Positions 41,313 to 58,797 of a stretch of 64,000 nt of DNA are shown here, in pieces. Where the stretch lies: assembly GCA_045653805.1 (NCBI GenBank), contig JAZOMF010000075.1:123200-187199 (forward strand). The letters are read 5' to 3'. Under the pieces are notes generated by a model that worked only from the letters and a program-made list of their open reading frames with translations, was not told the origin of the DNA and did no database searches. The translations under genes were made by a program, and so were the position numbers. This DNA is from Eubacteriales bacterium (GTDB lineage Bacteria > Bacillota > Clostridia > Oscillospirales > CAG-272). The stretch's first letter is position 1. Each line of letters begins with the position of its first letter.

Positions 41313-43583
41313 TCAGCTTTCCATCTTGGACATCTCTCTTTGAGCCATTACAAGGCCGTAGTAGATTCCCTTCTTTTCTACAAGCTCATCGTGAGTGCCT
41401 ACCTCGGCAATCTTACCTTTATCAAGCACCACAAGGCGCGTTGCGTTTCGAAGGGTGGAAAGACGGTGGGCGATGGCTATTGTGGTTCTGTTTTTGGAGA
41501 GGTTCTGAAGCGCGTCCTGGATCTGCTTTTCGGTTTCGGTATCAAGAGATGCCGTAGCCTCATCAAGGATCAATATCTTGGGGTTATGAAGCAGTGCGCG
41601 TGCGATTGCAACTCTCTGTCGCTCTCCACCCGAAAGGCTATGACCCTTCTCGCCCACCTTGGTATCGTATCCGTCGGGAAGCTTGATGATAAAATCGTGA
41701 CATCCCGCAAGCTTTGCCACGGCAATTATCTCTTCTCGTGAAGCCTCGGGTTTGGCGTAAGCGATATTTTGGTAGATCGTTCCCGAGAAAAGGAAGGTTT
41801 CCTGAAGCACCACGCCCATTTGAGATCTCAAAGCATCTTGGGAAATATCTCTTATATCAACTCCGTCAACACAGATGCTTCCGTCCTCAACGTCGTACAT
41901 TCTCATAATAAGATTTATGAGAGTAGATTTACCAACGCCCGATTTTCCCACAAGACCGATAAATTCACCCGACTTAATGTGCAGATCAATATTGGTAAGT
42001 ACATCGGCGCACTTATCGTAGCCGAAGGAAGTGTTGTTAATATCAATGTCGCCCTTAATCGTAACGGTCACGGCATTGTCCTTGTCGCTTATCTCCTCGC
42101 TCTCGTCGATTATCTCGAACACCTTATTAGTTGACGTAAGGAAGTTTACTATCTGGCGGGGCAGGTGCGAGAACATTCTTAGAGGCCCGTAGATCATACT
42201 TGCGTAAAGCGAATATTTGGACATATCACCGATACTCATATCGGCGTTAAGTATGGCGTTACCAACGTACATAAGGATAATGAACTCACCAAAGCACATA
42301 AGGAACTGCATTATAGGCATAACGCTATACCAAAGAGTATCCGATTTCATCTGCAATTCTCTCTCCTCCGCCGCCACCTTTTCGTAGCGCAGAGTTTCCT
42401 TGCGCTCCATTCCAAAGGATTTAACCACACGTATTCCGGAGAAAATGTCGTGCAATACCGAGTTGGATTTCGCCGCTGCCTGCCAACAACGGCGGAAGAG
42501 CTTATGTATCTTTTTCCAAAGGAATCTAAATAGAAACACCACCAGCGGTGCGGGTATGAGAATGAGCAAAAGCAGTACGCCAAGATCATTAGCTATGAAC
42601 ATAACAGCAACTGCTATAAGCAATAGAGCCTGCTCTACGATAGACGGAAATGAATGAACCAAAAATCGCTGTATCTCGCCTACATCGTGAGAAACTCTTC
42701 TCATAAGCTCACCTGCGGTGCGCTGGGATATTTTTGCGATCGACAGTCTTTGTATCTTCTCAAAAAGCATATCGCGAAGATCGACTATCATACTGTTACT
42801 TGCATTTATCAAGGCGTGACTTCTAAAAACGCCCATTGCACGAAGAACCACTTGTGACAAAAGCAACAAAAGAACCACACCGACATATTTAAGTGCATCG
42901 GTATTTCCCGCAATGATATAATCATCAACCAGTACCTTATTTATTTCCGGAACAAAGAGGTTCAAGCAGCTGATAGTAACGAACAATATAATCGAAATGA
43001 ATATAAACCACTTATAGGGCTTGATTATTCCCCACAGGCGCTTTATGGTGGTCAGCTTGCTGACACAACGCGGACACTTTTGTGAACCTCTTGGCAAGGG
43101 TCTTCCGCACTTGGGGCATCTGCTCCTATGCTCAAAGCCAGCCAAGCCCACTTTGGCTTTCATCTTGTCATAGTATTCTATTCCTCGCTCGGCGATACGG
43201 TTGAGCATCTTTATACTTCCGATCATTCTCTTGGCGCACGACATGGTGCCGATGCACAAAAGATGAGTTTCACCGCTCTTCAAGGTATATGAAGCAAACA
43301 CGGTGCCAACGCCGTTATCGGTCTTGAAGGACACTACGTCATCAAGAGCTATCTTGCTAGAGACCGCTCCATCGATTATTACGTTGATGTATTCTCTATC
43401 AACGAATACCATTCCGTCAACTCTCACTCCCGCCTTTTCGGGATGGAGATCGAAAGTAAACAAAGAAACTACGTCTTCCCTTTGTACGTCAGGGAATATT
43501 TTCTTTAGCTTTTCTACGGGAGACACGCCATTTTTGCGCTTCCTTCGTCGAAGTCTCAACACGTTTTCACCGCCTTTCTTCAA
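41313..43583 (-). CDS. ABC exporter half-transporter (TMD-NBD) with ~185-aa N-terminal PH-like plus zinc-ribbon extension
   Basis: Walker A GKSGVGKST, signature LSGGERQR, Walker B ILILDEATA. The N-terminus carries CPKCGRPLPRGSQKCPRC before TM1. Start is uncertain: TTG at 43583, or GTG at 43562 behind AAAGGCGGTG. Confidence 0.85.
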   Translation of the reverse strand: MKKGGENVLRLRRRKRKNGVSPVEKLKKIFPDVQREDVVSLFTFDLHPEKAGVRVDGMVFVDREYINVIIDGAVSSKIALDDVVSFKTDNGVGTVFASYTLKSGETHLLCIGTMSCAKRMIGSIKMLNRIAERGIEYYDKMKAKVGLAGFEHRSRCPKCGRPLPRGSQKCPRCVSKLTTIKRLWGIIKPYKWFIFISIILFVTISCLNLFVPEINKVLVDDYIIAGNTDALKYVGVVLLLLLSQVVLRAMGVFRSHALINASNSMIVDLRDMLFEKIQRLSIAKISQRTAGELMRRVSHDVGEIQRFLVHSFPSIVEQALLLIAVAVMFIANDLGVLLLLILIPAPLVVFLFRFLWKKIHKLFRRCWQAAAKSNSVLHDIFSGIRVVKSFGMERKETLRYEKVAAEERELQMKSDTLWYSVMPIMQFLMCFGEFIILMYVGNAILNADMSIGDMSKYSLYASMIYGPLRMFSHLPRQIVNFLTSTNKVFEIIDESEEISDKDNAVTVTIKGDIDINNTSFGYDKCADVLTNIDLHIKSGEFIGLVGKSGVGKSTLINLIMRMYDVEDGSICVDGVDIRDISQDALRSQMGVVLQETFLFSGTIYQNIAYAKPEASREEIIAVAKLAGCHDFIIKLPDGYDTKVGEKGHSLSGGERQRVAIARALLHNPKILILDEATASLDTETEKQIQDALQNLSKNRTTIAIAHRLSTLRNATRLVVLDKGKIAEVGTHDELVEKKGIYYGLVMAQREMSKMES

Positions 43584-43604
43584 GATTTTATTTTGTGCAA
43601 AATT

Positions 43605-44147
43605 TTATAGGTAAAGTTCTATTTTTCTGTAGCTTTTTCTATCAAGCTCGGACACTTGAGCGATAGAATATCGGTTTCCGTCTACGTCGATAAGGATAAC
43701 GCTATCCTCACCCGTATGGATTATATTACGGAAGGTATCCTGCATGGTAAATTCAAACTTTTTACCGCTCTTGTCAGTGACCTTCCAATAGGAAAATCCG
43801 TATCTTTCCTTCTGAGAATGTATCACACTTATCTCGGGAGAAAAATACTTTCTTTCGATCTCGGTGACAAGCAACGCCTTATCCTCTTCTCCGAAATCAT
43901 CAATATTGTATATAAGACCTATCTCTCGGTTTTCTTCACCAAGCACCGCTATGTATTCCCAAAGCAGCTCGTGAGGAAATGCTCTGTGAAGAAAAACTCT
44001 GTCGTGCGACACTTCTTCGTCACCTGATTTAACGGTGACCATAAGAAATCCATTTTTCATCTTAAAGCTTGCATTTGAACCGTCAAGTCTTAATATCTTG
44101 GCGGCATCCTCAAGCATTATTTCATTTTTGTTTTCTATCTGTTCCAT
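43605..44147 (-). CDS. DUF1854 domain-containing protein
   Basis: 180 aa sandwiched between the two ABC genes. Block FLHRAFPHELLWEYIAVLGEENREIGLI...YFSPEI matches my memory of DUF1854. Confidence 0.7.
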   Translation of the reverse strand: MEQIENKNEIMLEDAAKILRLDGSNASFKMKNGFLMVTVKSGDEEVSHDRVFLHRAFPHELLWEYIAVLGEENREIGLIYNIDDFGEEDKALLVTEIERKYFSPEISVIHSQKERYGFSYWKVTDKSGKKFEFTMQDTFRNIIHTGEDSVILIDVDGNRYSIAQVSELDRKSYRKIELYL

Positions 44148-44165
44148 TTTTACCTCGTTTATAAG

Positions 44166-46460
44166 TCACTCGGTGATTCCCGCATTTTTGAGCGCTTCAA
44201 GCTGCAAGGTGTAGAGCTTATTATATACTCCGCCTTCAATTTCAAGCAGCTCCTTGTGAGTTCCCCTCTCCGCCACCTTGCCGTGCTCAATAACTATAAG
44301 CTCGTCGGCATCACGAAGGGTGGAAAGTCTGTGGGCTATCATTATGGTAGTTTTGTTTTGAGTAAGTGCGGTTATGGCATTTTGTATTCTCTTCTCGGTC
44401 TCGGTATCCATCGCCGCAGTCGCCTCATCGAGAATAAGTATCTTGGGATTTCGGAGAATGGCGCGAGCTATGGAAAGTCTCTGCTTCTCTCCTCCCGAAA
44501 GTCCTTTGTAGCCAAAGCCTATCATAGTATTATAGCCGTCGGGCATTTTGATAATAAAATCGTGGGCACCCGAGAGTTTTGCCGCCCTTATGACCTCCTC
44601 ATAGCTGGCTTCAGGGTTGGCATATTTGATATTATCAAGGATAGTACCGATAAAGAAGTAGGTCTCCTGGGAAACGATGGCGATATTGTCGTAGAGTGTC
44701 TTAAAGGAAAGATCCTTTACATCAATACCGTCAACAAGTATTTCCCCTTCTTGCGGATCGTAAAGTCGCATAAGAAGATTTACAATAGTGCTCTTTCCCG
44801 CACCGGTGTGGCCCACGATTCCCAAGGTCTTGCCCGCAGGCACGTCAAAGCTTACGTTATCGATGATCTTCCTATTTTTATTGTAAGAGAAATCAACGTT
44901 TTTAAACTCTACTCTACCCTCTACCGTGTCAAGGGTAATAGCGTTTTCCTTTTCGGTAATATCGGGCTCGGTATCGTATATTTCAAATAGTCTTTGGAGC
45001 GCATTGGTACTGGAAGCAGACCAGTCCACCATCTCAGCAAAGAAATACATTGGACTGTATATCATATTTACGTACGCCACGAACTTTATAAGCTTGCCGT
45101 AGGTGAAATCGTTGTATCCGTTAATAACCATCCATCCGCCAACACCGAGAGCTATGATGTTACCAAGATAAAGGATAAGTCCCAGCGAAGGATATACGTA
45201 ATTATTAAAAAGAGAGAGCTTTTTCTGATTTTTAGCCGCTTTTTTGCTGGTTTTACTAAATCTTTCTATCTCCGCCTCTTCTTGAGAAAAGGCTTTTACT
45301 ACTCGCATTCCTCCAAGCACGTCGGAAAGCTGACCGTTAAGCGAGCGCGAGCCGGAATAATTCTTGGCGTGGAGCTTCATTCCCATTCGATAGCTTCTCA
45401 ATATCAAAAGGAAGAATATCGGAACGGTTATGAGCGACAAAGCCGCCAAAAGCGGGTTTTCAATGAAAAGCAATACGCAAACTACGGCAACTTGAACCAC
45501 ATTTATAAGGAAATACGGTACTCCGTCGCAGAAAAAATTGTATATTGTGTTGGAGTCATTATTGACCTGGGTCATAAGTCCGCCGGTCTGTCTGCCGCCA
45601 AAAAATGTTAAGGACAGCTTTTCAATGGCAGTAAACACCGTCATTTTAAGATCAAATACAATTCTTGCCGCAATTCTTGCAGAAAGCACTCCGTTAATGG
45701 TGGAAAATGCTTGAGATAACAGTCTTGTTCCGACTATAATCGCGATTGCAAACAAAATGTCCTTATAGAATTTTCCACCCTCGGTAAGCACCTCGTCATA
45801 GAAAAATTCATTTGACAAGTAAGGCACTAAAATGCCTGTAGCAGTAAGCAGAACGAGGGACAAAAGCATAAATAATATGTATTTTTTATACTTAACAAGG
45901 AATATTCCAAATCTGCGGTAAAGCTTGCCCTTTTCCATACAACGGGGGCAGATCTTGCGGTTCTTATCGGGATAGCGCATGCCGCACTTGGGGCAACAAC
46001 GCTCGCGCGGGTCGTCTTCCTTATCGATCTCAAAATCGGGAGAGCTTATTTCCCCCTTTTTCATTCTTTCAAAGTACTTGACAAAAAGCAATACCGAATG
46101 TCGGCAGGTATTTGTCAGGGCAGTGAGAAAAACATACTCTCCGTCCTTTTTCTTGGCGGTAAGTCTTGCTCCCGACAAAAACTCCTCGAATTTAAGCTTG
46201 TCTATCTCGGATATGTCGTACTCACAGAATGAGGTCTCTCGCCATATTTTTTCAACTTTCTTTTTTCCGTCTCCTGATTCAAGCGCCTCGCTTCCGCTCG
46301 CAACGTAAATTTTCTCTGCGGTAGCAAGGATATAGGTGTCGCAAAATACGTGATCTCGGTTCATGTCGCAGTATGCCGCCAGCATAAGCTTCGAGCAATC
46401 TACTCCCTCATCTTCAAGAGATCTATATATATAACTCGGGATCTTATCTATTAAAAGCAC
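44166..46460 (-). CDS. ABC exporter half-transporter (TMD-NBD) with ~195-aa N-terminal PH-like plus zinc-ribbon extension
   Basis: GTG start behind GGAGGTG. N-terminal CCPKCGMRYPDKNRKICPRC. Walker A GHTGAGKST, signature LSGGEKQR, Walker B ILILDEATA. Confidence 0.85.
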   Translation of the reverse strand: MLLIDKIPSYIYRSLEDEGVDCSKLMLAAYCDMNRDHVFCDTYILATAEKIYVASGSEALESGDGKKKVEKIWRETSFCEYDISEIDKLKFEEFLSGARLTAKKKDGEYVFLTALTNTCRHSVLLFVKYFERMKKGEISSPDFEIDKEDDPRERCCPKCGMRYPDKNRKICPRCMEKGKLYRRFGIFLVKYKKYILFMLLSLVLLTATGILVPYLSNEFFYDEVLTEGGKFYKDILFAIAIIVGTRLLSQAFSTINGVLSARIAARIVFDLKMTVFTAIEKLSLTFFGGRQTGGLMTQVNNDSNTIYNFFCDGVPYFLINVVQVAVVCVLLFIENPLLAALSLITVPIFFLLILRSYRMGMKLHAKNYSGSRSLNGQLSDVLGGMRVVKAFSQEEAEIERFSKTSKKAAKNQKKLSLFNNYVYPSLGLILYLGNIIALGVGGWMVINGYNDFTYGKLIKFVAYVNMIYSPMYFFAEMVDWSASSTNALQRLFEIYDTEPDITEKENAITLDTVEGRVEFKNVDFSYNKNRKIIDNVSFDVPAGKTLGIVGHTGAGKSTIVNLLMRLYDPQEGEILVDGIDVKDLSFKTLYDNIAIVSQETYFFIGTILDNIKYANPEASYEEVIRAAKLSGAHDFIIKMPDGYNTMIGFGYKGLSGGEKQRLSIARAILRNPKILILDEATAAMDTETEKRIQNAITALTQNKTTIMIAHRLSTLRDADELIVIEHGKVAERGTHKELLEIEGGVYNKLYTLQLEALKNAGITE

Positions 46461-46522: not shown

Positions 46523-46551
46523 ATTATACAATTTTTCTGCAATTATGTCAA
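46523..46551 (-). promoter_or_regulatory. Exact consensus sigma-A promoter of the ABC-DUF1854-ABC operon
   Basis: Minus strand reads TTGACA, 17 nt spacer, TATAAT, about 60 nt upstream of the GTG start. Confidence 0.75.
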
Positions 46552-48146: not shown

Positions 48147-48180
48147 TTGGGGCTTGCTTTTAAGCAAGCCCCAATTTATA
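48147..48180 (+). terminator. Intrinsic terminator after radA (left edge of the island)
   Basis: TTGGGGCTTGC-TTTTAA-GCAAGCCCCAA followed by TTTATAT. Confidence 0.8.
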
Positions 48181-48244: not shown

Positions 48245-48273
48245 TTGACAAGATATATTTTTTGTGGTATAAT
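48245..48273 (+). promoter_or_regulatory. Exact consensus, extended -10 sigma-A promoter of the TerB-N/ATPase/helicase operon
   Basis: TTGACA, 17 nt spacer, (TGg)TATAAT. The RBS AAAGGAGAGG follows about 25 nt downstream. Confidence 0.8.
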
Positions 48274-48311
48274 GATATATTACAGAAATACTCTTGAAAG
48301 GAGAGGAAAAT

Positions 48312-50090
48312 ATGTCTGAAAATGAAAAAAAAGACACCCAAGACCTTGATTTTTGGAATTTGGATCAATATATAAAAAAACGCCCCTCTCCTGCGCCCAT
48401 AAAGCCTTTTTCAAAAAGCTCTCTTGAGGCGGTAGAAGTGAGATCGGTAGAGAGCGGCAAAAATCAAGCAACTGTTACCCGCGAAAGTGCTTTTGGGGTC
48501 TCTCCATTCTCAAAAGCAAGCGAAAAGGTTGGAGAAGGCACTATCACGCGCTTTATCCCCCCTCACCGCGATCCCGCTTTTGCAAAAAAATACATTTTAT
48601 TTGAATATGTCCCCGAAAATCCATTGATAAAAAGTGTCAAGGTCTGCTCCGAGCGACCCGATGAAAAGGTATTTGTAGACACAAACCTTTTCATTAGAGA
48701 AAGACGCGTTATTTTGAACAAAAAGGCTTCCGAAACTCCTTACACGGCTTATTATTCCTACTCACCCAGATATTCGCAGATGAGCCGCGCGCAGCTTTCC
48801 TACTACCTTTGGTGGCGAGAAAACACGCGCAACGGCATTTTTCTTAAGGCTGACGAATCATATATAATCCTCTACGCCTACGAGCTTGCGGCAACGGGCG
48901 AGGGTGAGGACAAGGTGGCGGCACTCTCAATGCTCTGCGCACTTTTGACAAACTACACCGACAAAGAGCTGAATCCAATCTATCGCTTGATGATAAGGGA
49001 TATTTTATGTGATTTCTGCCTTATTCACGGTCTCGCGGCGCCTCGCGAGCTTTTGAGCAAGCTCAATCGCCAGTTGCTTTCAAACTCGTTTTTGCCCGAA
49101 TTTTTCATTGATCTTTCTGACGAAAACAGGTCAAGCGCACTGGAAATGGGTATATCAGCACTTTCGATGTATGATTACAGACGAAGTAAATTTTATTCCG
49201 ACGATACAAAAAAGCTTTTCAAGGATGCTATGAATGGCGCTATTGCTGCGCTTTTCTCAAATCCTGCCGCTTTTGAAACGATCACATCCTTTACAAACGG
49301 TGCTTACGGATGTGTCACCGCCGAGCGCAGACCCTTCTCTCGAATGGTCAATATCGTGAACAAAAGCATCAAGCTTGAGATCACCTACTATCAGATTTCA
49401 AATATTCAGCCCGCTGTCACCGATGCTATGCGGTATTCGGAGAACAGGATACGAGAGCATCTTGGTGTGAAGAACAAGCTCCATATTATGGGCATAAATC
49501 CTCTCGTCAAGGCGGCATTGGATGCTTATTTTGACGAACACTACCCTACCAAACCTATTATTGACAGGCGCAGAAAAAATGCCACTGTAAGCGAAGACGA
49601 GCCCCACGAATACGATCATTTTTACGATGCACCCAAGGTTGAGATCTCTCCCGAGCGAGCGCTGGAGATCGAGCGCGAATCATGGAGTACGACAAAGATC
49701 TTGACCGAGGCATTCGCAGACAGTGAAAAAGATACTATATTGAATGCTCCCGAGCTTATAATTGAACCGATATTTGATATTACAGCACCTCACAAAGAGA
49801 GTGATAAGCCCCAAATCAATGAAAATACCACCCCCGCGCATAAGACCTCCGCGCCAAGCACTCTTTTCGGTCAAATCAAGGACGAAATCGGAGAAATTGC
49901 CGAGTTTATCACTCTTTGCAAGCTGCAAAAAACAACTGAACAGCGCAAATTTGCCTTGTCGCACTCTCTTACCATTGACGAGATTGCAGACACCATAAAC
50001 GAATGCGCCGCAAATGTTTTTGGAGATATTATTCTCGAAGATGCCGGCGGATACTACACTATCATTGACGATTACATCGACCAATTCTGA
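48312..50090 (+). CDS. TerB-N / TerB-C domain protein (SngA-like)
   Basis: Start at MSENEKK (RBS AAAGGAGAGG). TerB-N-type block YYSYSPRYSQMSRAQLSYYLWWRENTRNG. C-terminal TerB-C-like block LTIDEIADTINECAANVFGDIILEDAGGYYTIIDDY. Confidence 0.75.
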   Translation: MSENEKKDTQDLDFWNLDQYIKKRPSPAPIKPFSKSSLEAVEVRSVESGKNQATVTRESAFGVSPFSKASEKVGEGTITRFIPPHRDPAFAKKYILFEYVPENPLIKSVKVCSERPDEKVFVDTNLFIRERRVILNKKASETPYTAYYSYSPRYSQMSRAQLSYYLWWRENTRNGIFLKADESYIILYAYELAATGEGEDKVAALSMLCALLTNYTDKELNPIYRLMIRDILCDFCLIHGLAAPRELLSKLNRQLLSNSFLPEFFIDLSDENRSSALEMGISALSMYDYRRSKFYSDDTKKLFKDAMNGAIAALFSNPAAFETITSFTNGAYGCVTAERRPFSRMVNIVNKSIKLEITYYQISNIQPAVTDAMRYSENRIREHLGVKNKLHIMGINPLVKAALDAYFDEHYPTKPIIDRRRKNATVSEDEPHEYDHFYDAPKVEISPERALEIERESWSTTKILTEAFADSEKDTILNAPELIIEPIFDITAPHKESDKPQINENTTPAHKTSAPSTLFGQIKDEIGEIAEFITLCKLQKTTEQRKFALSHSLTIDEIADTINECAANVFGDIILEDAGGYYTIIDDYIDQF

Positions 50091-50122
50091 TTATGCCGAG
50101 TTTCGGCAGAATGGAGATCAAA

Positions 50123-51523
50123 ATGAACGAAATTACTCAAAATAATATGCCCCAAGTGCCTCGCCGCATACTCTCTTCTCTGCTTTCCAGTATTTCTGCG
50201 GGAGTTGTACCGAGAGCGGGAGCCCCATATATTGCAATCGGCAGAAAGGATGAAATACAAGCCTTTCTATCCGATCTTGAAGAAATAAACGAGGGCGGCG
50301 GCGCTATGCGCTTTCTCATCGGTCGCTACGGAAGTGGTAAGAGCTTTCTTATCCAGCTTATCCGAGGATATGCCCTTGAGCGCGATTTTCTCACCGCAGA
50401 TTGCGACCTTTCCCCCGAGAGAAAGCTGAGCGGAAGCGGAAACAGTGCCATCGCAACATATCGCGAGCTGATGAAGAATCTTGCATCCAAGTCCTCTCCC
50501 GACGGCGGCGCTCTCCCCAAGATCATTTCCCGTTGGATAGGAAAGATTCGAGGCGACCTTATGGCGGAGGATATTTCTCCCGACGATGAAAAATTTGAGC
50601 GCGAGCTTGGCAAGCGCATCTACTCTGAGCTTTCCGACCTTGAATTTTTGGTTGGTGGCTTTGATTTTGCCCGTGTAATTTTAGAATATTACAAGGCGAG
50701 CATTTCCGACGGTGAGGAGGCTACCATTCGCATGAGCGCCTGCCTGCGCTGGCTTCGAGGCGAATATTCCACCAAGACTGAGGCTAAAAACGGACTTGGA
50801 TTCTCGGTATCGGTCATTATCAACGACGACAACTGGTACGATTTTCTCAAGCTTTGGGCGGTGCTTTCCAAGAAGATGGGCTACCGCGGACTTGTCGTGT
50901 TCATCGACGAGTGCGTAAACCTCTACAAGATTCCCCATCGAGTCAGCCGTGAGAACAACTACGAAAAGATACTTTCCATGTTCAACGATACTTTGCAGGG
51001 TCGCGCTCCCGGACTTGACATCATCTTCGGCGGCACGCCTCAATTCCTTGAGGACACACGCCGCGGTCTTTTCAGCTACGAGGCGCTTCGCTCCCGTCTT
51101 TGCGACAGCAAATTCGCACTTGAAGGATTTAAAAACCTCATCGGACCCGTTATCAGGCTGCGTCGCCTTACCGACGATGAGCTTTTCGCTCTCATTCAGC
51201 GTGTGACCGTACTTTATTCTCAATTCTACCAATGGGATTGCAGAGTTACAAACGAGGATAGACTTAAATTCCTTAATATCTGCCTCTCTCGTGCGGGTGC
51301 TGACAGTATGATAACTCCCCGTGAAATGCTCCGCGACTATATGACCGTTCTCAACATTCTGATGCAGAATCCCGAGGCAAGCTTTGATGACGTAGTAGGC
51401 AGCCACGTAACACTCAAAACTGACAAGGACTCTGACCCCGACGCGCTTTCAACCAATGAAAGCGAAGAGAGTGCCGCAAGTGCGCCCACTAAAAAATTTA
51501 CCGCTAACGATATAGAATTTTAA
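50123..51523 (+). CDS. DUF2791/BrxD-like P-loop ATPase (SngB-like)
   Basis: ISAGVVPRAGAPYIAIGRKDE...FLIGRYGSGKSFL (Walker A) and LVVFIDECVNL (Walker B). Start at MNEITQ (GGAG plus 6 nt); an ATG at 50093, 2 nt after the upstream stop, is the alternative. Confidence 0.75.
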   Translation: MNEITQNNMPQVPRRILSSLLSSISAGVVPRAGAPYIAIGRKDEIQAFLSDLEEINEGGGAMRFLIGRYGSGKSFLIQLIRGYALERDFLTADCDLSPERKLSGSGNSAIATYRELMKNLASKSSPDGGALPKIISRWIGKIRGDLMAEDISPDDEKFERELGKRIYSELSDLEFLVGGFDFARVILEYYKASISDGEEATIRMSACLRWLRGEYSTKTEAKNGLGFSVSVIINDDNWYDFLKLWAVLSKKMGYRGLVVFIDECVNLYKIPHRVSRENNYEKILSMFNDTLQGRAPGLDIIFGGTPQFLEDTRRGLFSYEALRSRLCDSKFALEGFKNLIGPVIRLRRLTDDELFALIQRVTVLYSQFYQWDCRVTNEDRLKFLNICLSRAGADSMITPREMLRDYMTVLNILMQNPEASFDDVVGSHVTLKTDKDSDPDALSTNESEESAASAPTKKFTANDIEF

Positions 51524-51558
51524 ACGCTCTGCTAAAAAGAGCCGCAAAAGGAGGATTT

Positions 51559-53907
51559 ATGACCGAAGCAGATCGCATTTTTGAGCGCTTTCCCGACTTC
51601 ATAAGAGAATATATCTACTCTCATTCTTGGGAATCTCTGCGCGCCGTTCAGGTTGCGGCAGCAAGGACTATATTTGACACCGAAAATAATCTTCTTCTCA
51701 CCTCCTCAACAGCCAGCGGCAAGACCGAGGCGGCATTCTTCCCCATCCTCTCGCTTTTAGAGGAGGATAAGCCCTCCAGCATCGGCGTGCTTTACATCGC
51801 TCCCTTGAAGAGCCTTATAAACGACCAATTTGAGCGACTTGAAGAGGTCTTGGATATGACGGGCGTTAAGGTGACCCATTGGCACGGCGACGTGGCGGCA
51901 TCTCACAAGCGCAAGCTACTTGAAAAGCCCGAGGGCATTTTGCAGATAACTCCCGAGTCCCTTGAAGCGATGCTTATCAATCGCTCCAATGATATTCCCC
52001 GTCTTTTCGGTGACCTCAGATTCGTGGTCATCGACGAGATACACACCTTAACGGGCACCGACCGAGGAAATCAGATAATCTGTCAGCTTTCCCGAATTGC
52101 TCACCTTATAGGCTATCATCCTCGCCGCATTGCCCTCTCGGCAACCATCGGTGATCCCTCTCTTGCAGCAGAATGGCTAAACGCCGACACGGGCCGCGAG
52201 ATAGACGTGCCCGAATTCGGTCAGGAGAAGATTCGCTGGAGACTTGGCCTTGAGCATTTCTACATTCAAAATCCCGAGCTTGAAAAGCTTAAAGCGGAAG
52301 AAGAAAAGGCTAAGATCGCCGACAAAAAATCAAATAAAGATGACGTACTGTTCGTAGAAAAGGTCAAAGATGCCCCAAGCGGCAACGATTATAACGGAGA
52401 CTCCGCATCATACGAAAATAACGGCTTGAAAAAGCCCTATTACATCGACCCCGGTTACGAATATGCCTACGATTGTGTAAAAGACAAAAAATCCTTGGTT
52501 TTCTCAAATTCACGAGAGGAAACCGAATACGTTTGCGCAACTCTCCGCCAGATAGCAAAATATCGAGGAGATGAAGATAGCCATATCCTCATTCATCATG
52601 GAAACCTCTCGGCGTCACTCCGTGAGGAGGCTGAAATGAAGATGCGTGACGACGAGGAATTTGCCGTCACCTGCGCTACGGTAACAATGGAGCTTGGCAT
52701 CGACATAGGTCAGCTTGAGCGAGTTATGCAGATAGAAGCGCCCAACAGTGTTTCAAGCTTTTTGCAAAGGCTGGGGCGCTCGGGCAGAAGAAGTCAGACA
52801 CCCGAAATGATGATGGTATTCCGCGAGGAGGAGGCTCTGCCCAACACACCTCTCCCACAAATCATTCCGTGGGAGCTGCTACGAGGTATAGCTATCATTC
52901 AGCTTTACATTGAAGAGCGATTTATCGAGCCGCCCTCACGCAAAAAGATGCCATTCAGTCTGCTTTTCCATCAGACGCTCTCAACTCTTGCGTCCTGCGG
53001 CGAGCTGACTCCCGCAAGGCTTGCGCAGAGAGTTCTATCTCTCCCTCCCTTTAGGTTTGTAAGCCGCGAGGACTACAAGGAGCTTATCGTTTCCATGCTC
53101 AACAACGAGTTTTTGGAAATGACCGAGGAAAAGGGTCTTATCGTGGGTCTTGTTGGCGAGAGATTGCTTAAAAGCTTTAAATTCTACGCCGTTTTCAAGG
53201 ATAGTGAGGACTTCACCGTCCGTTGCGGCTCGGATGAAATAGGCACTATAACCACCCCTCCCCCCGTGGGCGACCGATTTGCTCTTGCAGGTCGCGTTTG
53301 GGAGGTCGAAGAGCTGGACGTACAAAGAAAGCTCCTTTACGTCAAAAAGGTTGACGGAAAAATGGAGGTCTCATGGCCCGGTGACTTCGGTGAGATACAC
53401 ACCAAAATTTTGCGCCGTATGAAGCAGATACTTGAGGAGGATACAGTTTACCCATATCTCAAGGAAAACGCCGTAAAGCGCTTAAATCAGGCTCGTGCGA
53501 CCGCAAGAAACACTGGTATGCTTGAACACTCCCTGGTTCACCTTGGCGGATACTCTTGGTGCCTCTTCCCTTGGCTCGGCACTCGCTCCTTCCGCACTCT
53601 GCGCAAGTATATAAAGAAAAACGCCGCCGAAAATAATATCAGCGGCATTGAGTTCGAGGGATGCTATTACATCACCTTCAAGATGGAAAAGGTCAGCGAC
53701 ATTCAGTTTGTGTCCCGCCTGCTTGACGGCGTTGAGCGCGAGGGTATCATCTGTGAGCACCTCGTTGAAAACAGCGAGATACCCGTATTTGAAAAGTACG
53801 ACAATTATATTCCCCATTCTCTGCTCCGCAAAGCCTACGCCGCGGATAAGCTCCGCGCCGACGAGGCAGAAGAACAGATCCGACATATATTTGAAGAGTT
53901 TGAATAA
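51559..53907 (+). CDS. Lhr/BrxHI-like SF2 (DEAD/DEAH-box) helicase with ~330-aa C-terminal extension (SngC-like)
   Basis: Motif I SSTASGKTEAAF, motif II VVIDEIHTL, motif III SATIGD, motif VI QRLGRSGRR. RBS AAAGGAGG. Confidence 0.85.
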   Translation: MTEADRIFERFPDFIREYIYSHSWESLRAVQVAAARTIFDTENNLLLTSSTASGKTEAAFFPILSLLEEDKPSSIGVLYIAPLKSLINDQFERLEEVLDMTGVKVTHWHGDVAASHKRKLLEKPEGILQITPESLEAMLINRSNDIPRLFGDLRFVVIDEIHTLTGTDRGNQIICQLSRIAHLIGYHPRRIALSATIGDPSLAAEWLNADTGREIDVPEFGQEKIRWRLGLEHFYIQNPELEKLKAEEEKAKIADKKSNKDDVLFVEKVKDAPSGNDYNGDSASYENNGLKKPYYIDPGYEYAYDCVKDKKSLVFSNSREETEYVCATLRQIAKYRGDEDSHILIHHGNLSASLREEAEMKMRDDEEFAVTCATVTMELGIDIGQLERVMQIEAPNSVSSFLQRLGRSGRRSQTPEMMMVFREEEALPNTPLPQIIPWELLRGIAIIQLYIEERFIEPPSRKKMPFSLLFHQTLSTLASCGELTPARLAQRVLSLPPFRFVSREDYKELIVSMLNNEFLEMTEEKGLIVGLVGERLLKSFKFYAVFKDSEDFTVRCGSDEIGTITTPPPVGDRFALAGRVWEVEELDVQRKLLYVKKVDGKMEVSWPGDFGEIHTKILRRMKQILEEDTVYPYLKENAVKRLNQARATARNTGMLEHSLVHLGGYSWCLFPWLGTRSFRTLRKYIKKNAAENNISGIEFEGCYYITFKMEKVSDIQFVSRLLDGVEREGIICEHLVENSEIPVFEKYDNYIPHSLLRKAYAADKLRADEAEEQIRHIFEEFE

Positions 53908-53956
53908 ATTAATCTACCCCCGACAGTACTGTCGGGGGTAGACCTAAGTGCGGCTG
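53860..53956 (+). repeat. Helicase 3'-end module, copy A (in situ): last ~15 codons, stop, 12-bp GC hairpin and ACCTAAGTGCGGCTG
   Basis: Aligns base-for-base over 97 nt with 57180-57276 (about 90% identical by eye). Hairpin is CTACCCCCGACA-GTAC-TGTCGGGGGTAG at 53914-53941. Confidence 0.9.
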
Positions 53957-54030
53957 AAAAATACACATTGTTTATATATTGATTTTGTATTTTTTATGTA
54001 ATACAGTTTTTAAGGACAGTAATTCTAATT

Positions 54031-54696
54031 TTATTCCTGCTGTGCCTCTTGTGAAAATATGTTGTCTGCAATAACCTTTGCAAACTGAATGTTCAATTTG
54101 GGATATATTTCATTCATTATTTTTCTTGATTCTTCAATTTTTCCCTGCTTGAATAAAAATATGGCGTTGAGATAATTCACCATATTTTCCGTTTCGTTAG
54201 TTTCCTTTAAAGATTCATAGTAACCTTCTGCAGTTTTCAAGTCATTCTGAAGCAGATAATACATACACAACCAACTGCTTTTAAATGCTTTTCTATGCTT
54301 TACGGCATTAATATGCTTTAAAAATTTTTCGTTATCTACTTTTGCTAAAAAGGAAACAGCGAGCATTCCGTTAAGATCGTCAATTATGCGCCGCACACTT
54401 GGGAAGGGCGATGTTTTTGATATGATATAATACCATTTAGTTATTTTTTTGCCTTTTGAAATAACAACATCATAGTTTCCTGACAAATAAGCATTGTATG
54501 CTTTCATATAAAGTCCTCTTGCAACAAGACTGACTATAAAAAATATAAAGATCAGAATTAGCAAAACAAAGGGCAGTGCTATTATGGCAAGAGATCCAAA
54601 AATCGTGATGAAGGCACGAAGCAAATCTCTTATACTAATAAACAAACAGACAATAAAAACATAAATAACGTATAATATCTGATTTAACGTTTCCAT
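54031..54696 (-). CDS. Membrane-anchored helical-repeat (TPR-like) protein, paralog of 56227-56817
   Basis: ATG behind GGAGGTG. Two N-terminal TM helices. C-terminal half aligns with the paralog (FLKHINAV...LCMYYLLQNDLKTAEGYY...FLFKQGKIEESRKIMNEIYPKL...KVIADNI). Confidence 0.65.
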   Translation of the reverse strand: METLNQILYVIYVFIVCLFISIRDLLRAFITIFGSLAIIALPFVLLILIFIFFIVSLVARGLYMKAYNAYLSGNYDVVISKGKKITKWYYIISKTSPFPSVRRIIDDLNGMLAVSFLAKVDNEKFLKHINAVKHRKAFKSSWLCMYYLLQNDLKTAEGYYESLKETNETENMVNYLNAIFLFKQGKIEESRKIMNEIYPKLNIQFAKVIADNIFSQEAQQE

Positions 54697-54722
54697 ACAC
54701 ACCTCCAAAAATTAAAATTGCA

Positions 54723-54890
54723 TTAAAGTATAGGGATAACAGGATTACCCAATAGAATTGATATGGGTGCAGAGGTTACGTTACCTGCTGCATCGTAGCT
54801 GAAGGCCTCGACAGAAACTATCGAGTTATCGGAAGTCTTTCTGATCACTCTGGCAGTTACTCTGCTGAGTTCATCATAAGTATAACACAT
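54723..54890 (-). pseudogene. RHS/YD-repeat fragment (55 codons, no RBS, stop 8 codons upstream of its ATG)
   Basis: Translation is MCYTYDELSRVTARVIRKTSDNSIVSVEAFSYDAAGNVTSAPISILLGNPVIPIL. It contains two YD-repeat cores (YTYDELSRVT and FSYDAAGNVTS) at the canonical spacing. Confidence 0.6.
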
Positions 54891-54917
54891 TTTGGTCGAA
54901 CTTGCAAGTACTTAGAT

Positions 54918-54948
54918 AAAAAAACAGCCGCACCCGAAAGTGCGGCTG
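54918..54948 (-). terminator. Intrinsic terminator after the bPH-domain gene
   Basis: CAGCCGCAC-CCGAAA-GTGCGGCTG, followed by a T-run on the minus strand. Confidence 0.75.
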
Positions 54949-55010
54949 GAAAACAATGTTTTTAATACTTAATGAAAACTGTAAAGAAGCAAATTGTGTA
55001 ACTAAACTAT

Positions 55011-55529
55011 TTAATTCTTATTATCCAAAGACCTAACGTTATCTTTACAATTTAATATGAAAGACTCAATTGTACTTTGATGTTTTTTTAATACTATACC
55101 ATAAACACAATGAGTTTTAATATCAGGAAGATGAGAAATGTGCTTCTTGGCGTATATTTGGTTATTTCCGGAAAAAGTCAAATGGGCGATACCCAAAACT
55201 CGTTCGACAACATTTTGTTGCAATTCAATTTTGGTAATATTAGTTACAGTATAATGCGTTTTTACACATTTAAAACCGCTTCCTCCGGGTGTTGGAAAAG
55301 TGATGGGAGTAACATATTTTATTTTGCAGTTATCTAACTCAATATATTTGGGAAAGTTCAATGGAGAGACAATCAAATATATTAATAAAACTATGATCGC
55401 AGCTAAAACAAGATCATATCTGAATGGTCGTATCATTGCCATCACAACGGAAACAGCGAAAAGAAGTATAAATACTAAATAAAATTTCGAATTGAAAATA
55501 TTACCATATCTGCATAATTTAAGTTTCAT
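55011..55529 (-). CDS. Membrane protein with bacterial PH (bPH_2/YdbS-like) domain
   Basis: ATG behind GGGAGAAG. Two TM helices, then ITKIELQQNVVERVLGIAHLTFSG. Confidence 0.6.
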   Translation of the reverse strand: MKLKLCRYGNIFNSKFYLVFILLFAVSVVMAMIRPFRYDLVLAAIIVLLIYLIVSPLNFPKYIELDNCKIKYVTPITFPTPGGSGFKCVKTHYTVTNITKIELQQNVVERVLGIAHLTFSGNNQIYAKKHISHLPDIKTHCVYGIVLKKHQSTIESFILNCKDNVRSLDNKN

Positions 55530-55684
55530 TTTCTTCTCCCGCGACAAAAATAATAATTATGCCTTAATCAAATAGTTCTCTCAAACAAAAATTGTAATTT
55601 TTGAACTAGTTATAACGCAAATTGCTTTTATTTTTTCTAAATATATTTTGTTGCAAGCATTATCAAATGCGTTTTCTTGTATTA

Positions 55685-56131
55685 TTATGAAATTTCAACT
55701 AAGCCAAGTACAAATTGGAATGAGGTAAATCCTTCACCGTAATTATCAGAAAGATATACCATGGTTAAGTAAAGAACTTCTCCGTCAGTCAGCGTCACTG
55801 TATAGGTCGCATGCTCTTCCATGGTGTTTCCTGATGTACTGAAAGAATTTTGAACATTAAAGCTTATTTGCTCTATTGAAATGGCTTCGCGACCTGCCAA
55901 GTATCTACTCATTTGTGCGATAGCGGCATCGGAATTTTCAACTGATTGAGGGTGCATCATCTTTTTGGCATCAGACATGCTATTTTGTGCCAAAACCATC
56001 ATCATTTCCTCTACTTTAGGGAACGAGTCTACTTCGGTCGACACCCCTGACATATTTGTGTTACAAGCGCACGCCGTCCAACAGCCAAGCATAGACAACA
56101 AAATCAAAGTTAAACAGATTATTTTTTTCAT
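55685..56131 (-). CDS. Small lipoprotein of unknown function
   Basis: Lipobox MKKIICLTLILLSMLGC. 148 aa. No family assignable from memory. Confidence 0.6.
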   Translation of the reverse strand: MKKIICLTLILLSMLGCWTACACNTNMSGVSTEVDSFPKVEEMMMVLAQNSMSDAKKMMHPQSVENSDAAIAQMSRYLAGREAISIEQISFNVQNSFSTSGNTMEEHATYTVTLTDGEVLYLTMVYLSDNYGEGFTSFQFVLGLVEIS

Positions 56132-56226
56132 AGAAAATACTACCTTTAAAATTTGGTTTTTTAAATTAAGACTTTAGCAAAGAATAAATTACAAATATAA
56201 CTACTCCGACTAACATAGTAAAAATA

Positions 56227-56817
56227 TCAGCTTTTGATTACCGAATCTGCGATTTGTTTTAGTACAGGAATTGTTAGTTTATCAAATATCTCAAGCATTT
56301 TCGTTTTTGCAATCTCTTCATTTCCTTGCTTATATGCTTCGAAAGAAGTTAAAAACGTTCGTTGTACGTATGTTCTATCATCGGATGCAATCCGGGCATA
56401 GTGGGCAGATGCATTTTCAAAGTCGTTTTTGTTTAGATAGAATAACGATATCCAAAACTCTTTAATATCTATATTTAAGCTCAATTCGTTTATATGCAAT
56501 AAAAACTGATCATCATTAGATGTAGCAAAATATGAAACCGCAAGCGAAAAATGTAGATATTCCACTCTAGATAAAATCTGCTTAGTTAAGAGTCTTGCGT
56601 TATACTTCCGATAAATATGCAACAATTTCTCACCGTTTTCTATGATGTTGTTGTAATCGCCTATAACAAGTTTTTTTGTAATGTCCCGAAATCTCAACTC
56701 TAAAACAACAGAGCGAATCAACTGAAAAAATAAAATCAGAAAACATACTATCGCAGTAATTATGAGAAGGCTAGGATCAAAATGAACGGTAACATCGCCG
56801 ATCTGTGTTGTGAACAT
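56227..56817 (-). CDS. Membrane-anchored helical-repeat (TPR-like) protein, paralog of 54031-54696
   Basis: RBS GAGGT. N-terminal TM helix. Block FLLHINEL...ISLFYLNKNDFENASAHY...FEAYKQGNEEIAKTKMLEIFDKL...KQIADSV. Confidence 0.65.
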   Translation of the reverse strand: MFTTQIGDVTVHFDPSLLIITAIVCFLILFFQLIRSVVLELRFRDITKKLVIGDYNNIIENGEKLLHIYRKYNARLLTKQILSRVEYLHFSLAVSYFATSNDDQFLLHINELSLNIDIKEFWISLFYLNKNDFENASAHYARIASDDRTYVQRTFLTSFEAYKQGNEEIAKTKMLEIFDKLTIPVLKQIADSVIKS

Positions 56818-56840
56818 TATATATACCTCGCAAAATTATT

Positions 56841-56966
56841 TTAGTTTATGTTGGTAGCGGTGCTCCGCTGCCAGCCAAAGCGGAAGCCAATGCGCCTAAA
56901 GCGTAAAGTACCATAGCAACGGATCACCACTATGATAATTATTGCAATAATTTTTTTCTTGTTCAT
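56841..56966 (-). pseudogene. Truncated remnant: first 15 codons of a 57981-58538-type gene fused to unrelated sequence (41 codons)
   Basis: MNKKKIIAIIIIVVI (compare MNKRKIIAMIIIVVI at 58538), then RCYGTLRFRRIGFRFGWQRSTATNIN and a stop. It lies inside repeat copy 1. Confidence 0.6.
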
Positions 56967-57227
56967 AGCAAACCCTTTCTATAGATGAAGTTGAATTACA
57001 GATAATATGGTACCACGTATGAATTTTTGAAGAACTATTCCCATATGTTGGCTTGTATATTATATCATACATTACATTGAATGTCAATACAGCTCCCGTT
57101 AATGACTATTTATCCAAACAAAAAAATTAGCCCGCCGAGAAAATTTGAAGACAAGGCGCACCGGAGAAAGCAGGGTGCAGACGAGGCTGAAGAACAGATC
57201 AGAGCGATTTTTGAAGAATTTGAATAA
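56922..57227. repeat. ~305-bp direct repeat, copy 1 (signal-anchor codons, leader, minus-strand promoter and helicase-tail remnant)
   Basis: Collinear with 58494-58797 with scattered substitutions and 1-2-nt indels (read by eye). Confidence 0.9.
57059..57087 (-). promoter_or_regulatory. Exact consensus sigma-A promoter inside repeat copy 1
   Basis: Minus strand reads TTGACA, 17 nt spacer, TATAAT. It would drive the remnant ORF and the 56817-to-55011 genes. Confidence 0.7.
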
Positions 57228-57276
57228 ATTAATCTACCCCCGACAATACTGTCGGGGGTAGACCTAAGTGCGGCTG
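57180..57276 (+). repeat. Helicase 3'-end module, copy B (displaced)
   Basis: Encodes ...ADEAEEQIRAIFEEFE and a stop, then the same hairpin (57234-57261) and ACCTAAGTGCGGCTG as copy A. Confidence 0.9.
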
Positions 57277-57306
57277 CAAAAAATTTGATTATTGTTTGGG
57301 GATTTG

Positions 57307-57951
57307 TTAAGAAATGATATTGTTTTCTATTAGTGCATCACGAAAATTATCAGAAAGCTGATAGGCATAATTGAAATCCATATTGTGGATAAAGACATAG
57401 TAAATTTCGTCTTTTACCCAAATCTCCGCATTGATGTATAAAGAATTATGCTTTTGGGAACGCAAGCGTATTTCTTTATATTTACTATGTGAACCTTCGG
57501 CTTGTATAGTGTTTTGGGTAAAAATTTCAGAAAACTCAAATGCTATCGTTGTTCCCTCAACAATAAAAATCTCATTTTTATAGTCAAAGGTTTCTTTGAA
57601 AAAAAACACTTCTTCTTGGGGAGGAAAGATATAATCGGGAGACTCGGTTGTGTAAGAATAATAATACTGAGCGATATTAAAAGGAAAACAATAATACCAT
57701 CCCAGATCATGCCAATCTTCTTTATCGATATCTATGTGAAACATGCCGTATTTTTCACAAGAATAATATTTTTCATTTTGGTATTCCAAATAGTATACTT
57801 CCTGTTCCTCATCATAGCGGTAGTCTACATTTCGATATATATCAGTATCAAGATCGAACATTCCGGCAACCATATAATGAACATGATTACAGGATGAAAA
57901 TGACATTATAACAATTAAAAGTAATGATATCGCAATAATTCGTTTACACAT
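57307..57951 (-). CDS. Lipoprotein of unknown function (Tyr/Asp/Glu-rich)
   Basis: RBS GGAGGA. Signal MCKRIIAISLLLIVIMSFSSC. Confidence 0.6.
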   Translation of the reverse strand: MCKRIIAISLLLIVIMSFSSCNHVHYMVAGMFDLDTDIYRNVDYRYDEEQEVYYLEYQNEKYYSCEKYGMFHIDIDKEDWHDLGWYYCFPFNIAQYYYSYTTESPDYIFPPQEEVFFFKETFDYKNEIFIVEGTTIAFEFSEIFTQNTIQAEGSHSKYKEIRLRSQKHNSLYINAEIWVKDEIYYVFIHNMDFNYAYQLSDNFRDALIENNIIS

Positions 57952-57980
57952 AAGTCCTCCAAAACATTAATAAATATTTT

Positions 57981-58538
57981 TTAATCGGTATATAGCCATC
58001 TCACATATTGATAAGTCAACACTTCACCGGTTGCTTCATCCACTACAGTATATTCCATACCAACATATTCGTCTGGAACGCCGTCTATCGATTGTAAAAC
58101 AGCAATTTTTTGTAAAATTGTTTTAGCTTGTGTTCGAATTGATTGGTATTCTTCTCCATTGGGATCGGTGCCGTGTGGTATATATACTGTTAATTCTTTA
58201 AAATCAGATGAAATAGAGAAGGGCTCTTTGTCAGGATATTCCGAAAATCCTGATAACCATTCGGTTTTTTTCCACGCTTGAGCTTGATATCGTGTTATTC
58301 TCAAAGTCAATACTCCACTTTCATCTATAGAAGCTCTTTTTCTTAAATCGCCCGTTTCATCGTAAAATTCAAAATATGTATCCATAAATTCCTCGGGAGA
58401 AACTCCAAATAAGTACATACAGTGTTTAGGGGGCAAGTACAACTCAAAGTAAGTATCAATAAATATATAATTTACACAAAGAGCAGATATACAGATCACC
58501 ACTATGATAATCATTGCAATAATTTTTCTCTTGTTCAT
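57981..58538 (-). CDS. Signal-anchored protein of unknown function
   Basis: MNKRKIIAMIIIVVICISALCV..., RBS AAAGGG. It is the first gene behind the repeat copy 2 promoter. Confidence 0.6.
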   Translation of the reverse strand: MNKRKIIAMIIIVVICISALCVNYIFIDTYFELYLPPKHCMYLFGVSPEEFMDTYFEFYDETGDLRKRASIDESGVLTLRITRYQAQAWKKTEWLSGFSEYPDKEPFSISSDFKELTVYIPHGTDPNGEEYQSIRTQAKTILQKIAVLQSIDGVPDEYVGMEYTVVDEATGEVLTYQYVRWLYTD

Positions 58539-58629
58539 AGCAAACCCTTTCTATAGATGAAGTTGAATTACAGATAATAGATACCCCGTATAAATTTTTG
58601 AAGAACTATTCCCATATGTTGGCTTGTAT

Positions 58630-58658
58630 ATTATATCATACATTACATTGAATGTCAA
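58630..58658 (-). promoter_or_regulatory. Exact consensus sigma-A promoter inside repeat copy 2
   Basis: Minus strand reads TTGACA, 17 nt spacer, TATAAT, about 85 nt upstream of the ATG at 58538. Confidence 0.7.
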
Positions 58659-58749
58659 TACATCTACCGTTAATGACTATTTATCCAAACAAAAAATTAG
58701 CCCGCCGAAAATTTTCGAAGACAAGGCGCACCGAAGAAAGCAGGGTGCA

Positions 58750-58797
58750 GACGAGGCTGAGGAACAGCTCAGACGAATTTTTGAAGAATTTGAATAA
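58750..58797 (+). repeat. Helicase 3'-end module, copy C (tail codons only)
   Basis: Encodes ...ADEAEEQLRRIFEEFE and a stop. It is followed by a different hairpin from copies A and B. Confidence 0.85.

Follow-up and report, generated by a model that had tools for sequence, protein, structure and literature searches.

Shango is a three-gene system composed of a TerB-family protein, an ATPase and a helicase, which was found in Escherichia coli defence islands and is anti-phage (Millman et al. 2022; 10.1101/2022.05.11.491447). It was found independently in the cDHS1 hotspot of Pseudomonas aeruginosa (Johnson et al. 2023; PMC10250203), and in strain PA14 it lowers plating efficiency 10- to 100-fold, gives smaller plaques and strongly protects liquid cultures (PMC10250203). 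Shango is thus a validated defence system, with no obvious effector and no solved structure found by sequence search. Here we analyse a Shango locus from an uncultured, probably spore-forming gut Clostridia bacterium, a host unlike E. coli and P. aeruginosa. It lies in a stretch of 64,000 nucleotides (nt), hereafter the window, from Eubacteriales bacterium (CAG-272; GCA_045653805.1, contig JAZOMF010000075.1, positions 123,200-187,199 of the forward strand).

Several described systems share parts with Shango. Type 2 bacteriophage exclusion (BREX) pairs an ATPase of the same family (PF10923) with a helicase of the same clade, SngC, BrxHI, DruE and DpdJ having been placed together in a defence-specific clade of superfamily 2 (SF2) helicases (PMC12278908). 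Hachiman (HamAB) is also a helicase-centred defence thought to read DNA state, although this likeness is a conceptual model only (PMC12278908): HamA is a dedicated nuclease effector and HamB is Ski2-like, whereas no nuclease is part of Shango and SngC falls in another SF2 clade. Bunzi, Dionysus and the ter tellurite-resistance cluster have in common with Shango the TerB-family naming and a hypothesis linking them to stress and the membrane. A domain review gives a TerB core (PF05099) for the SngA subunit of Shango (PMC10952713).

Profile searches identify a complete Shango system

Three open reading frames (ORFs) lie in tandem on the + strand of the window, between an extended -10 promoter and a hairpin terminator:

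48245-48273, + strand: sigma-A-type promoter, TTGACA, 17-nt spacer and TGgTATAAT (extended -10), with 12/12 positions matching plus the TG
48312-50090, + strand: sngA (ORF1), 592 amino acids (aa) from the ATG at 48312; alternative TTG start at 48294
50123-51523, + strand: sngB (ORF2), 466 aa, or 476 aa if read from the ATG at 50093
51559-53907, + strand: sngC (ORF3), 782 aa
53911-53944, reading alike on both strands: palindromic hairpin with a perfect 15-bp stem directly after the sngC stop, likely the operon terminator

A first-pass annotation made from the letters alone had seen a TerB-N block and a TerB-C end in ORF1, the motif layout of DUF2791/BrxD ATPases in ORF2 and an SF2 helicase in ORF3, and had called the triad Shango (SngABC). 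Both the PADLOC profiles and the literature agree with that name. The SngA profile matched ORF1 at 3.2e-38 (130.6 bits, profile positions 75-522 of 528), the SngB profile matched ORF2 over its full length at 1.1e-159, and the SngC profile matched ORF3 at 1.4e-242 (profile positions 5-716 of 720). Using Pfam, ORF1 gave TerB_N (1.1e-12, limited to profile positions 43-97) and TerB_C (1.9e-9), each of which passed its gathering score, ORF2 gave BrxC_BrxD/DUF2791 (PF10923) over its full length at 1.1e-150, and ORF3 gave DEAD and Helicase_C, together with a weak WH_Lhr match below threshold. All the expected motifs are present and intact, with ISAGVVPR, Walker A (GRYGSGKS) and Walker B (VVFIDE) in SngB, and motifs I (GKT), II (DEIH), III (SAT) and VI (QRLGRSGRR) in SngC.

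The three genes lie side by side on the same strand and share a single promoter and a single terminator, and their A-B-C order is also found in P. aeruginosa PA14 and on Clostridium and Klebsiella plasmids. As in the Shango systems of E. coli and PA14, there are three components in the same order, all matching PADLOC Sng profiles and none with a recognisable effector domain. Pfam recognised no nuclease or toxin domain in SngA, SngB or SngC, in line with the first reading of the sequence, and the lack of a transmembrane segment noted there for ORF1 was confirmed by hydropathy for the three proteins (highest 19-residue Kyte-Doolittle mean 1.33). Judging from its sequence, the locus is a complete and intact Shango (SngABC) anti-phage system, a known kind of defence system, and very probably a functional one.

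The second-best PADLOC matches were BrxD for ORF2 (5.8e-46) and BrxHI for ORF3 (1.6e-127). Along with the name of the Pfam family, BrxC_BrxD, they would suit a reading of ORF2 and ORF3 as BrxD and BrxHI, either the remnant of a type 2 BREX (Pgl-like) system or its accessory pair. The Sng profiles, however, are far ahead (530 vs 155 bits for ORF2 and 805 vs 425 bits for ORF3), and the NCBIfam BrxD equivalog NF033438 gave ORF2 152.6 bits, under its 350-bit cut-off. Unlike in type 2 BREX, no PglZ, PglX, PglW or BrxC candidate was found among the neighbours, of which the large ones are DnaE, a topoisomerase subunit, ABC transporters, SpoIVA, RadA and RNase Y, and the partner of the two proteins is a TerB-N/TerB-C protein, sngA always preceding the pair in relatives. 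We regard a BREX origin as extremely improbable.

SngA lacks the TerB core and carries a conserved N-terminal motif

SngA consists of a disordered N-terminus with the sequence DFWNL at aa 13-17, a TerB_N core motif (aa 147-175), a helical core, a linker (aa 471-514) and TerB_C, whose tail lies at aa 553-588. In an AlphaFold2 model built from 69 homologues, with a predicted local distance difference test (pLDDT) score of 77.7, residues 1-8 and 41-81 of the N-terminus fall under pLDDT 50, residues 90-470 form a confident and mostly helical core, and the disordered linker is followed by a C-terminal helix-helix-helix-hairpin unit. A sequence search against the PDB detected no relative of SngA, and a fold search of the model against the PDB and BFVD gave no match at E <= 0.001. 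The last ~75 residues showed weak winged-helix similarities (prob 0.4-0.5).

We found no hit for the TerB core (PF05099) in the window SngA at E <= 0.01, and it is also absent at this threshold from the SngA (533 aa) encoded by a Clostridium estertheticum plasmid. In contrast to the 592-aa window protein, the SngA of a Klebsiella IncFII plasmid (769 aa) has TerB_N, TerB and TerB_C, with PF05099 at 2e-7, and a profile of the window SngA clade aligned with it in the TerB_N core motif only. Because the PADLOC SngA profile still matches, we take the missing TerB core, as far as sequence comparison goes, to be the mark of an SngA sub-type and no ground for exclusion from Shango. The clade is a large one: at E <= 1e-3 it comprises 2246 representatives of 50%-identity clusters, of which 415 remain at E <= 1e-30.

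Within the first 80 residues, 125 of the 149 top SngA family representatives contain the motif FW[DENSQ][LIMFV], usually as DxFWD[LI] and often followed by xxLxPxKK. In the window it takes the form DFWNL (nt 48348-48362), and the N-terminus around it is disordered and variable. By its conservation, the motif is a candidate docking peptide, and its presence over most of the family makes it an obvious handle for function studies.

Membrane surveillance has been suggested for the TerB systems Bunzi and Shango (Millman et al., 10.1101/2022.05.11.491447), an idea repeated in the Dionysus preprint. Applied here, SngA would monitor a membrane, metal or stress signal, and growth arrest or death would follow through an effector not recognised in SngA. 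The SngA core, with no known fold and with many invariant Asp, Glu and Arg residues, leaves room for an enzymatic or metal-binding activity, and a membrane protein gene does occur within one related operon. In the conspecific contig L081 (98% DNA identity), positions 6177-6951 (window equivalent 51524-51546) hold a gene for a 251-aa multi-pass membrane protein (Pfam TMEM164) between sngB and sngC, and next to this gene the 3' end of sngB shows a stretch of diverged sequence. This gene, however, is missing from the window, from the seven other lineages and from all other Shango loci fetched. Moreover, the proteins of Bunzi, Dionysus and the ter cluster have a TerB core and/or transmembrane or pore-forming partners, whereas the window SngA has TerB_N and TerB_C only, no detectable transmembrane segment or amphipathic anchor, and nucleic-acid motor proteins as partners. 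No Ter gene (TerC, TerD, TerZ or TerA) was found among the neighbours. A whole clade of SngA proteins without TerB core or membrane anchor weakens the membrane-surveillance idea, and we consider it quite unlikely for this locus.

SngB and SngC pair a BrxD-like ATPase with an Lhr-like helicase

SngB is a P-loop ATPase of the BrxC/BrxD family (DUF2791), for which a sequence search against the PDB detected no relative. SngC is an SF2 helicase of the Lhr / BrxHI type. Its nearest solved structures by sequence are MrfA (YprA; 1e-27) and Mycobacterium smegmatis Lhr (8e-27), both aligned over the helicase core alone. We modelled the C-terminal 353 residues of SngC from 45 homologues (pLDDT 88.8) and obtained as top fold match the Lhr core 5v9x (prob 1.0, E 2.7e-3, ~13% identity), with a template-modelling score normalised to the query (TMq) of 0.48, followed by winged-helix regulators and MrfA. 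On the strength of the fold match to the Lhr core, we read the C-terminal extension of ~330-350 aa, in the model, as a winged helix plus an Lhr-like domain 4 and not as a hidden nuclease.

SngC shares with the Lhr core and MrfA the SF2 motifs and, probably, the RecA1-RecA2-winged-helix-domain-4 layout, these being its best solved matches by both sequence and fold. It differs from them in several respects. The resemblance in its C-terminal half stays at the low identity and TMq given above, and the NCBIfam repair-helicase equivalogs (PRK09751, PRK13767 and TIGR04121) scored 98-212 bits against cut-offs of 849-1496. SngC also lacks the Lhr C-terminal extension and the DUF1998 zinc module of MrfA, which gave no Pfam hit and whose parent structure 6znp aligned over the helicase core alone, and it is encoded in an operon with SngA and SngB.

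Shango behaves as a long-resident module in this Clostridia clade

The first-pass annotation had interpreted the operon as a defence island inserted between radA and rny, expecting presence/absence polymorphism. The operon is indeed flanked by these two genes, but rny is not adjacent to it, and the expected polymorphism was not what we observed. The two boundaries are as follows:

48147-48174, + strand: terminator hairpin of radA, 12-pair stem, 7 of the pairs GC, and T-rich tail
58972-60525, minus strand: rny, separated from sngC by a 4.84-kb low-GC block with six ORFs

The flanking genes are core ones. They encode DnaE, SpoIVA and a GyrA/ParC-type topoisomerase subunit, with two ABC transporters and RadA on the upstream side and RNase Y, PmbA and TldD on the downstream side. 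The SpoIVA gene is consistent with a spore former, and the nearest genomes are metagenome-assembled genomes of uncultured Clostridia from herbivore guts.

Among 80 species recovered via RadA, Shango follows radA in the two closest only (RadA 87-88% identical), while the other 78 (RadA <= 75% identity) have no Shango after radA. Contigs found via SngA homologues added six lineages, making eight related ones in all, with RadA 87-100% identical. The triad was at this locus in 8/8 of them: the six contigs that reach radA all have it downstream of radA, and the six that reach rny all have it directly upstream of rny-pmbA-tldD. The GC content of the three sng genes (45-50%) is similar to that of the whole window (44%) and of radA and rny (49%). 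PADLOC gave no further defence profile in 20 other proteins, 16 from the window (including the six ORFs downstream) and four from related loci. A metagenome scan with RNase Y for an empty radA-rny site was uninformative, the best relative being 75% identical with no radA or Sng genes nearby. Since the triad is at the locus in all lineages recovered, with host-like GC, a near-invariant promoter (see below) and no other known defence gene nearby, these sequence comparisons lead us to conclude that Shango in this clade is a long-resident, vertically inherited chromosomal module and not a recently acquired island.

In this respect the locus, chromosomal, core-like and vertical, differs from Shango systems that are in a variable hotspot such as cDHS1 or on a plasmid. 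The family as a whole is clearly mobile. We found SngB homologues on 697 plasmids, 542 of them conjugative and most of them from Klebsiella and Salmonella, and none in 50,697 phage records. One homologue on a Clostridium plasmid adjoins a relaxase gene and IS110. On the C. estertheticum plasmid pCF002-344, where a relaxase gene and IS110 are near the triad, a gene for an 849-aa protein with an ATP-binding cassette domain (L164 9599-12145) lies co-directionally 17 nt 3' of the triad, and such a gene may have an accessory function in Firmicute Shango systems carried by plasmids.

One related contig, L083, in which the triad comes after giant ORFs, was considered as a case of Shango moved elsewhere. 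This was rejected, as L166, with the same SngA (P0014) as L165, has the triad directly upstream of rny, and the upstream context of L165 resembles that of L083. None of L083, L165 and L166 reaches radA, and we take the giant ORFs of L083 and L165 to be probable cargo that entered on the 5' side of Shango without any change of locus.

SngA diverges faster than SngB, SngC and the neighbouring genes

We compared the window proteins with those of seven diverged lineages and obtained the following ranges of amino-acid identity:

SngA: 50-69%
SngB: 79-93%
SngC: 78-92%
RadA: 87-96%
Rny: 88-95%

The rate of nonsynonymous substitution (dN) relative to L082 was 0.22 for sngA, 0.040 for sngB, 0.057 for sngC and 0.037 for radA. 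Overall, the divergence of SngA exceeds that of SngB, SngC and the neighbouring housekeeping genes by a factor of 3-5. It is greatest over the first ~90 residues and the linker at 470-535, and is raised along the whole protein. The rank order of the lineages by divergence is identical for sngA, sngB and sngC, and we therefore attribute the difference to a faster SngA clock rather than to allele replacement.

The ratio of nonsynonymous to synonymous rates (dN/dS) was 0.03-0.05 for sngB and sngC. For sngA, its use as a test of positive selection was dropped, with the proportion of synonymous differences (pS) saturated at 0.6-0.8 and no 60-codon window exceeding a pN/pS of 0.56. Given this saturation, the claim is restricted to the difference in dN, and no positive selection is shown. 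We also considered a recent sweep of an sngA allele between the window and L081, where the dS of sngA was 0.013 vs ~0.1 for its neighbours. It was rejected, mismatches being clustered in mosaic patches across the region; the sngA value is low because no such patches fall there. With SngB and SngC under housekeeping-level constraint and SngA evolving fast, SngA is the natural candidate for a sensor or specificity role.

The same data raise the question of whether Shango has been domesticated in this clade, fixed beside radA and working mainly as an Lhr/MrfA-like helper in the repair or recombination of host DNA, or as a permanent guard of genome integrity, its defence role being lost or never the main one. 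The presence of the triad in every related lineage recovered points in this direction, as do the invariant promoter, the host-like GC, the housekeeping neighbours, the conservation of SngB and SngC at the level of RadA, Rny and PmbA, and the repair helicases that are the nearest solved relatives of SngC. Against it, experiments have shown homologous triads to be anti-phage, conjugative plasmids often carry members of the family, and species with more distant RadA have no triad at radA. Besides, the 3- to 5-fold faster divergence of SngA is atypical of a repair factor, radA is cut off from the operon by its own terminator, and SngC is far under the cut-offs of the repair-helicase equivalogs. 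Domestication seems to us unlikely. If it were true, the TerB-less SngA would be the sole part still in an arms race, Shango could do without TerB and the membrane, and DxFWD[LI] would be the conserved handle joining a variable sensor to a constant BrxD/BrxHI-type motor.

A tentative mechanism for SngABC

Taking the locus as a defence system, we can draw a mechanistic sketch, which is one possibility and a doubtful one in its details. SngA would be the phage-facing specificity or sensor subunit, or else the target of phage inhibitors, through its variable surface and disordered N-terminus, and its DxFWD[LI] peptide would dock it to a conserved partner. SngB, as a BrxD-type P-loop ATPase, might serve as a nucleotide-dependent switch or assembly factor. 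The working end would be SngC, a putative Lhr-type 3'-to-5' single-strand DNA translocase that may engage phage replication and recombination intermediates (3' tails, R-loops, D-loops) and dismantle or stall them. Phage DNA replication would thereby be disturbed directly and without suicide, instead of DNA being cleaved or the cell killed. By analogy, the plating and plaque phenotype of PA14 fits direct interference better than suicide.

An Lhr-type 3'-to-5' translocase would also suit incoming single strands, and Shango could act against plasmids or other mobile elements, targeting conjugative or transforming DNA that enters single-stranded. The abundance of the family on conjugative plasmids, where shutting out competitors would pay, and its absence from the phage records searched are in keeping with this. 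The published phenotypes, however, are anti-phage, and the window holds nothing that bears directly on the matter. Such a role would be compatible with the explanation we prefer, yet we consider it rather improbable as the main one.

Several points weigh against our interpretation. A literature search found no study of Shango mechanism, biochemistry or structure, and the mechanistic steps are our inference. The anti-phage phenotype was established with homologues from E. coli and P. aeruginosa. Fast SngA evolution could come from relaxed constraint, and the winged-helix reading of the SngA C-terminus is built on weak matches. An effector could be present in the unclassified SngA core, or a host protein could play that part. 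Finally, core-like conservation beside radA is unusual for a defence system and fits a housekeeping role too. Weighing these points, we hold the explanation as a whole, Shango identity together with the mechanism sketched above, to be fairly probable.

The locus leaves the definition of Shango unchanged and adds to it a member from an uncultured gut Clostridia clade. It stands out for a TerB-less and fast-evolving SngA with a conserved N-terminal motif, in a core-like triad that has insertion hotspots on both sides.

Variable DNA on both sides of the operon

In comparison with L081, the window contains an extra 4.84 kb of 33.5% GC, as against ~49% for its neighbours, between sngC and rny (53908-58746). 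This block encodes six small ORFs on the minus strand, all with an N-terminal transmembrane or signal segment (membrane-anchored or secreted) and none with a Pfam or PADLOC identity. It is absent from L081 and L002 and partly present in L082, where three of its ORFs are found at 92-97% identity beside an SMI1_KNR4-family gene.

The last ~50 nt of sngC (ADEAEEQIRxIFEEFE*) occur three times, at 53848-53907 (the real end), 57168-57227 and 58738-58797, and the copies bound two cassettes in the low-GC block. The repeats can also be delimited as 53848-53961, 57168-57281 and 58691-58797, and 56919-57227 matches 58491-58797. After the second copy comes the terminator that also follows the real end, and after the third comes the sngC terminator of L081. 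L082 has a second sngC-end copy as well (L082 17117-17174). From this arrangement of repeats, the block looks as though two integrase-less cassettes had been added in tandem, at a site that overlaps the 3' end of sngC.

The cargo in the sngC-rny or radA-sngA gaps differs in other lineages, and includes an AraC-type regulator, a 598-aa protein of no known kind, an SMI1_KNR4-family gene, giant ORFs of 1600-1970 aa and a 1809-aa protein with an ADP-ribosylating exotoxin domain. Very large genes, that of the 1809-aa protein among them, lie directly upstream of sngA in L083 (1-9708), L165 (1-9841) and L169 (4352-9781, in this case between radA and sngA), and the large upstream ORFs of 1613-1974 aa gave no Pfam family. 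The sngA-proximal side of the locus is therefore an insertion hotspot too. The polymorphic DNA here is cargo flanking Shango and not Shango itself, and the locus shows that a defence system can be a stable, core-like set while both of its flanks act as insertion hotspots.

Transcription signals

The promoter at 48245-48273 had been pointed out by the first-pass annotation and is confirmed, and the transcription of sngABC is probably constitutive. A block of ~40 bp from the -35 to ~+10 (TTgACAA...ATTTTTtGTGgTATAAT..ATATATTA) is nearly invariant across nine lineages, while the DNA around it, both farther upstream and where the coding sequence begins, has diverged. Within window positions 48245-48285, the spacer ATTTTTTGTGG and the ATATATTA directly after the -10 are invariant in the nine lineages beyond what the hexamers need, and might represent an operator or other regulatory element. 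The hairpin at 48147-48174, with equivalents 3' of radA in L001 and L002, sets radA apart from the Shango transcription unit.

Gaps of 2-35 nt had been proposed within the operon. The operon itself and the 35-nt gap between sngB and sngC stand. The sngB start is most likely the ATG at 50123, which has a GGAG ribosome-binding site six bases upstream and is also the start called in L081, which widens the sngA-sngB gap from 2 nt to ~32 nt.

Rfam and tRNA scans of 44-64 kb gave no match. A promoter scan of 46-56 kb returned 27 promoter-like sites, compared with 16.4 +/- 4.1 in shuffles, and only two of 12/12 positions. The other 12/12 TTGACA-17-TATAAT site is at 46523-46551 on the minus strand, pointing away from radA, and presumably drives the ABC-transporter / DUF1854 operon at 41313-46460.

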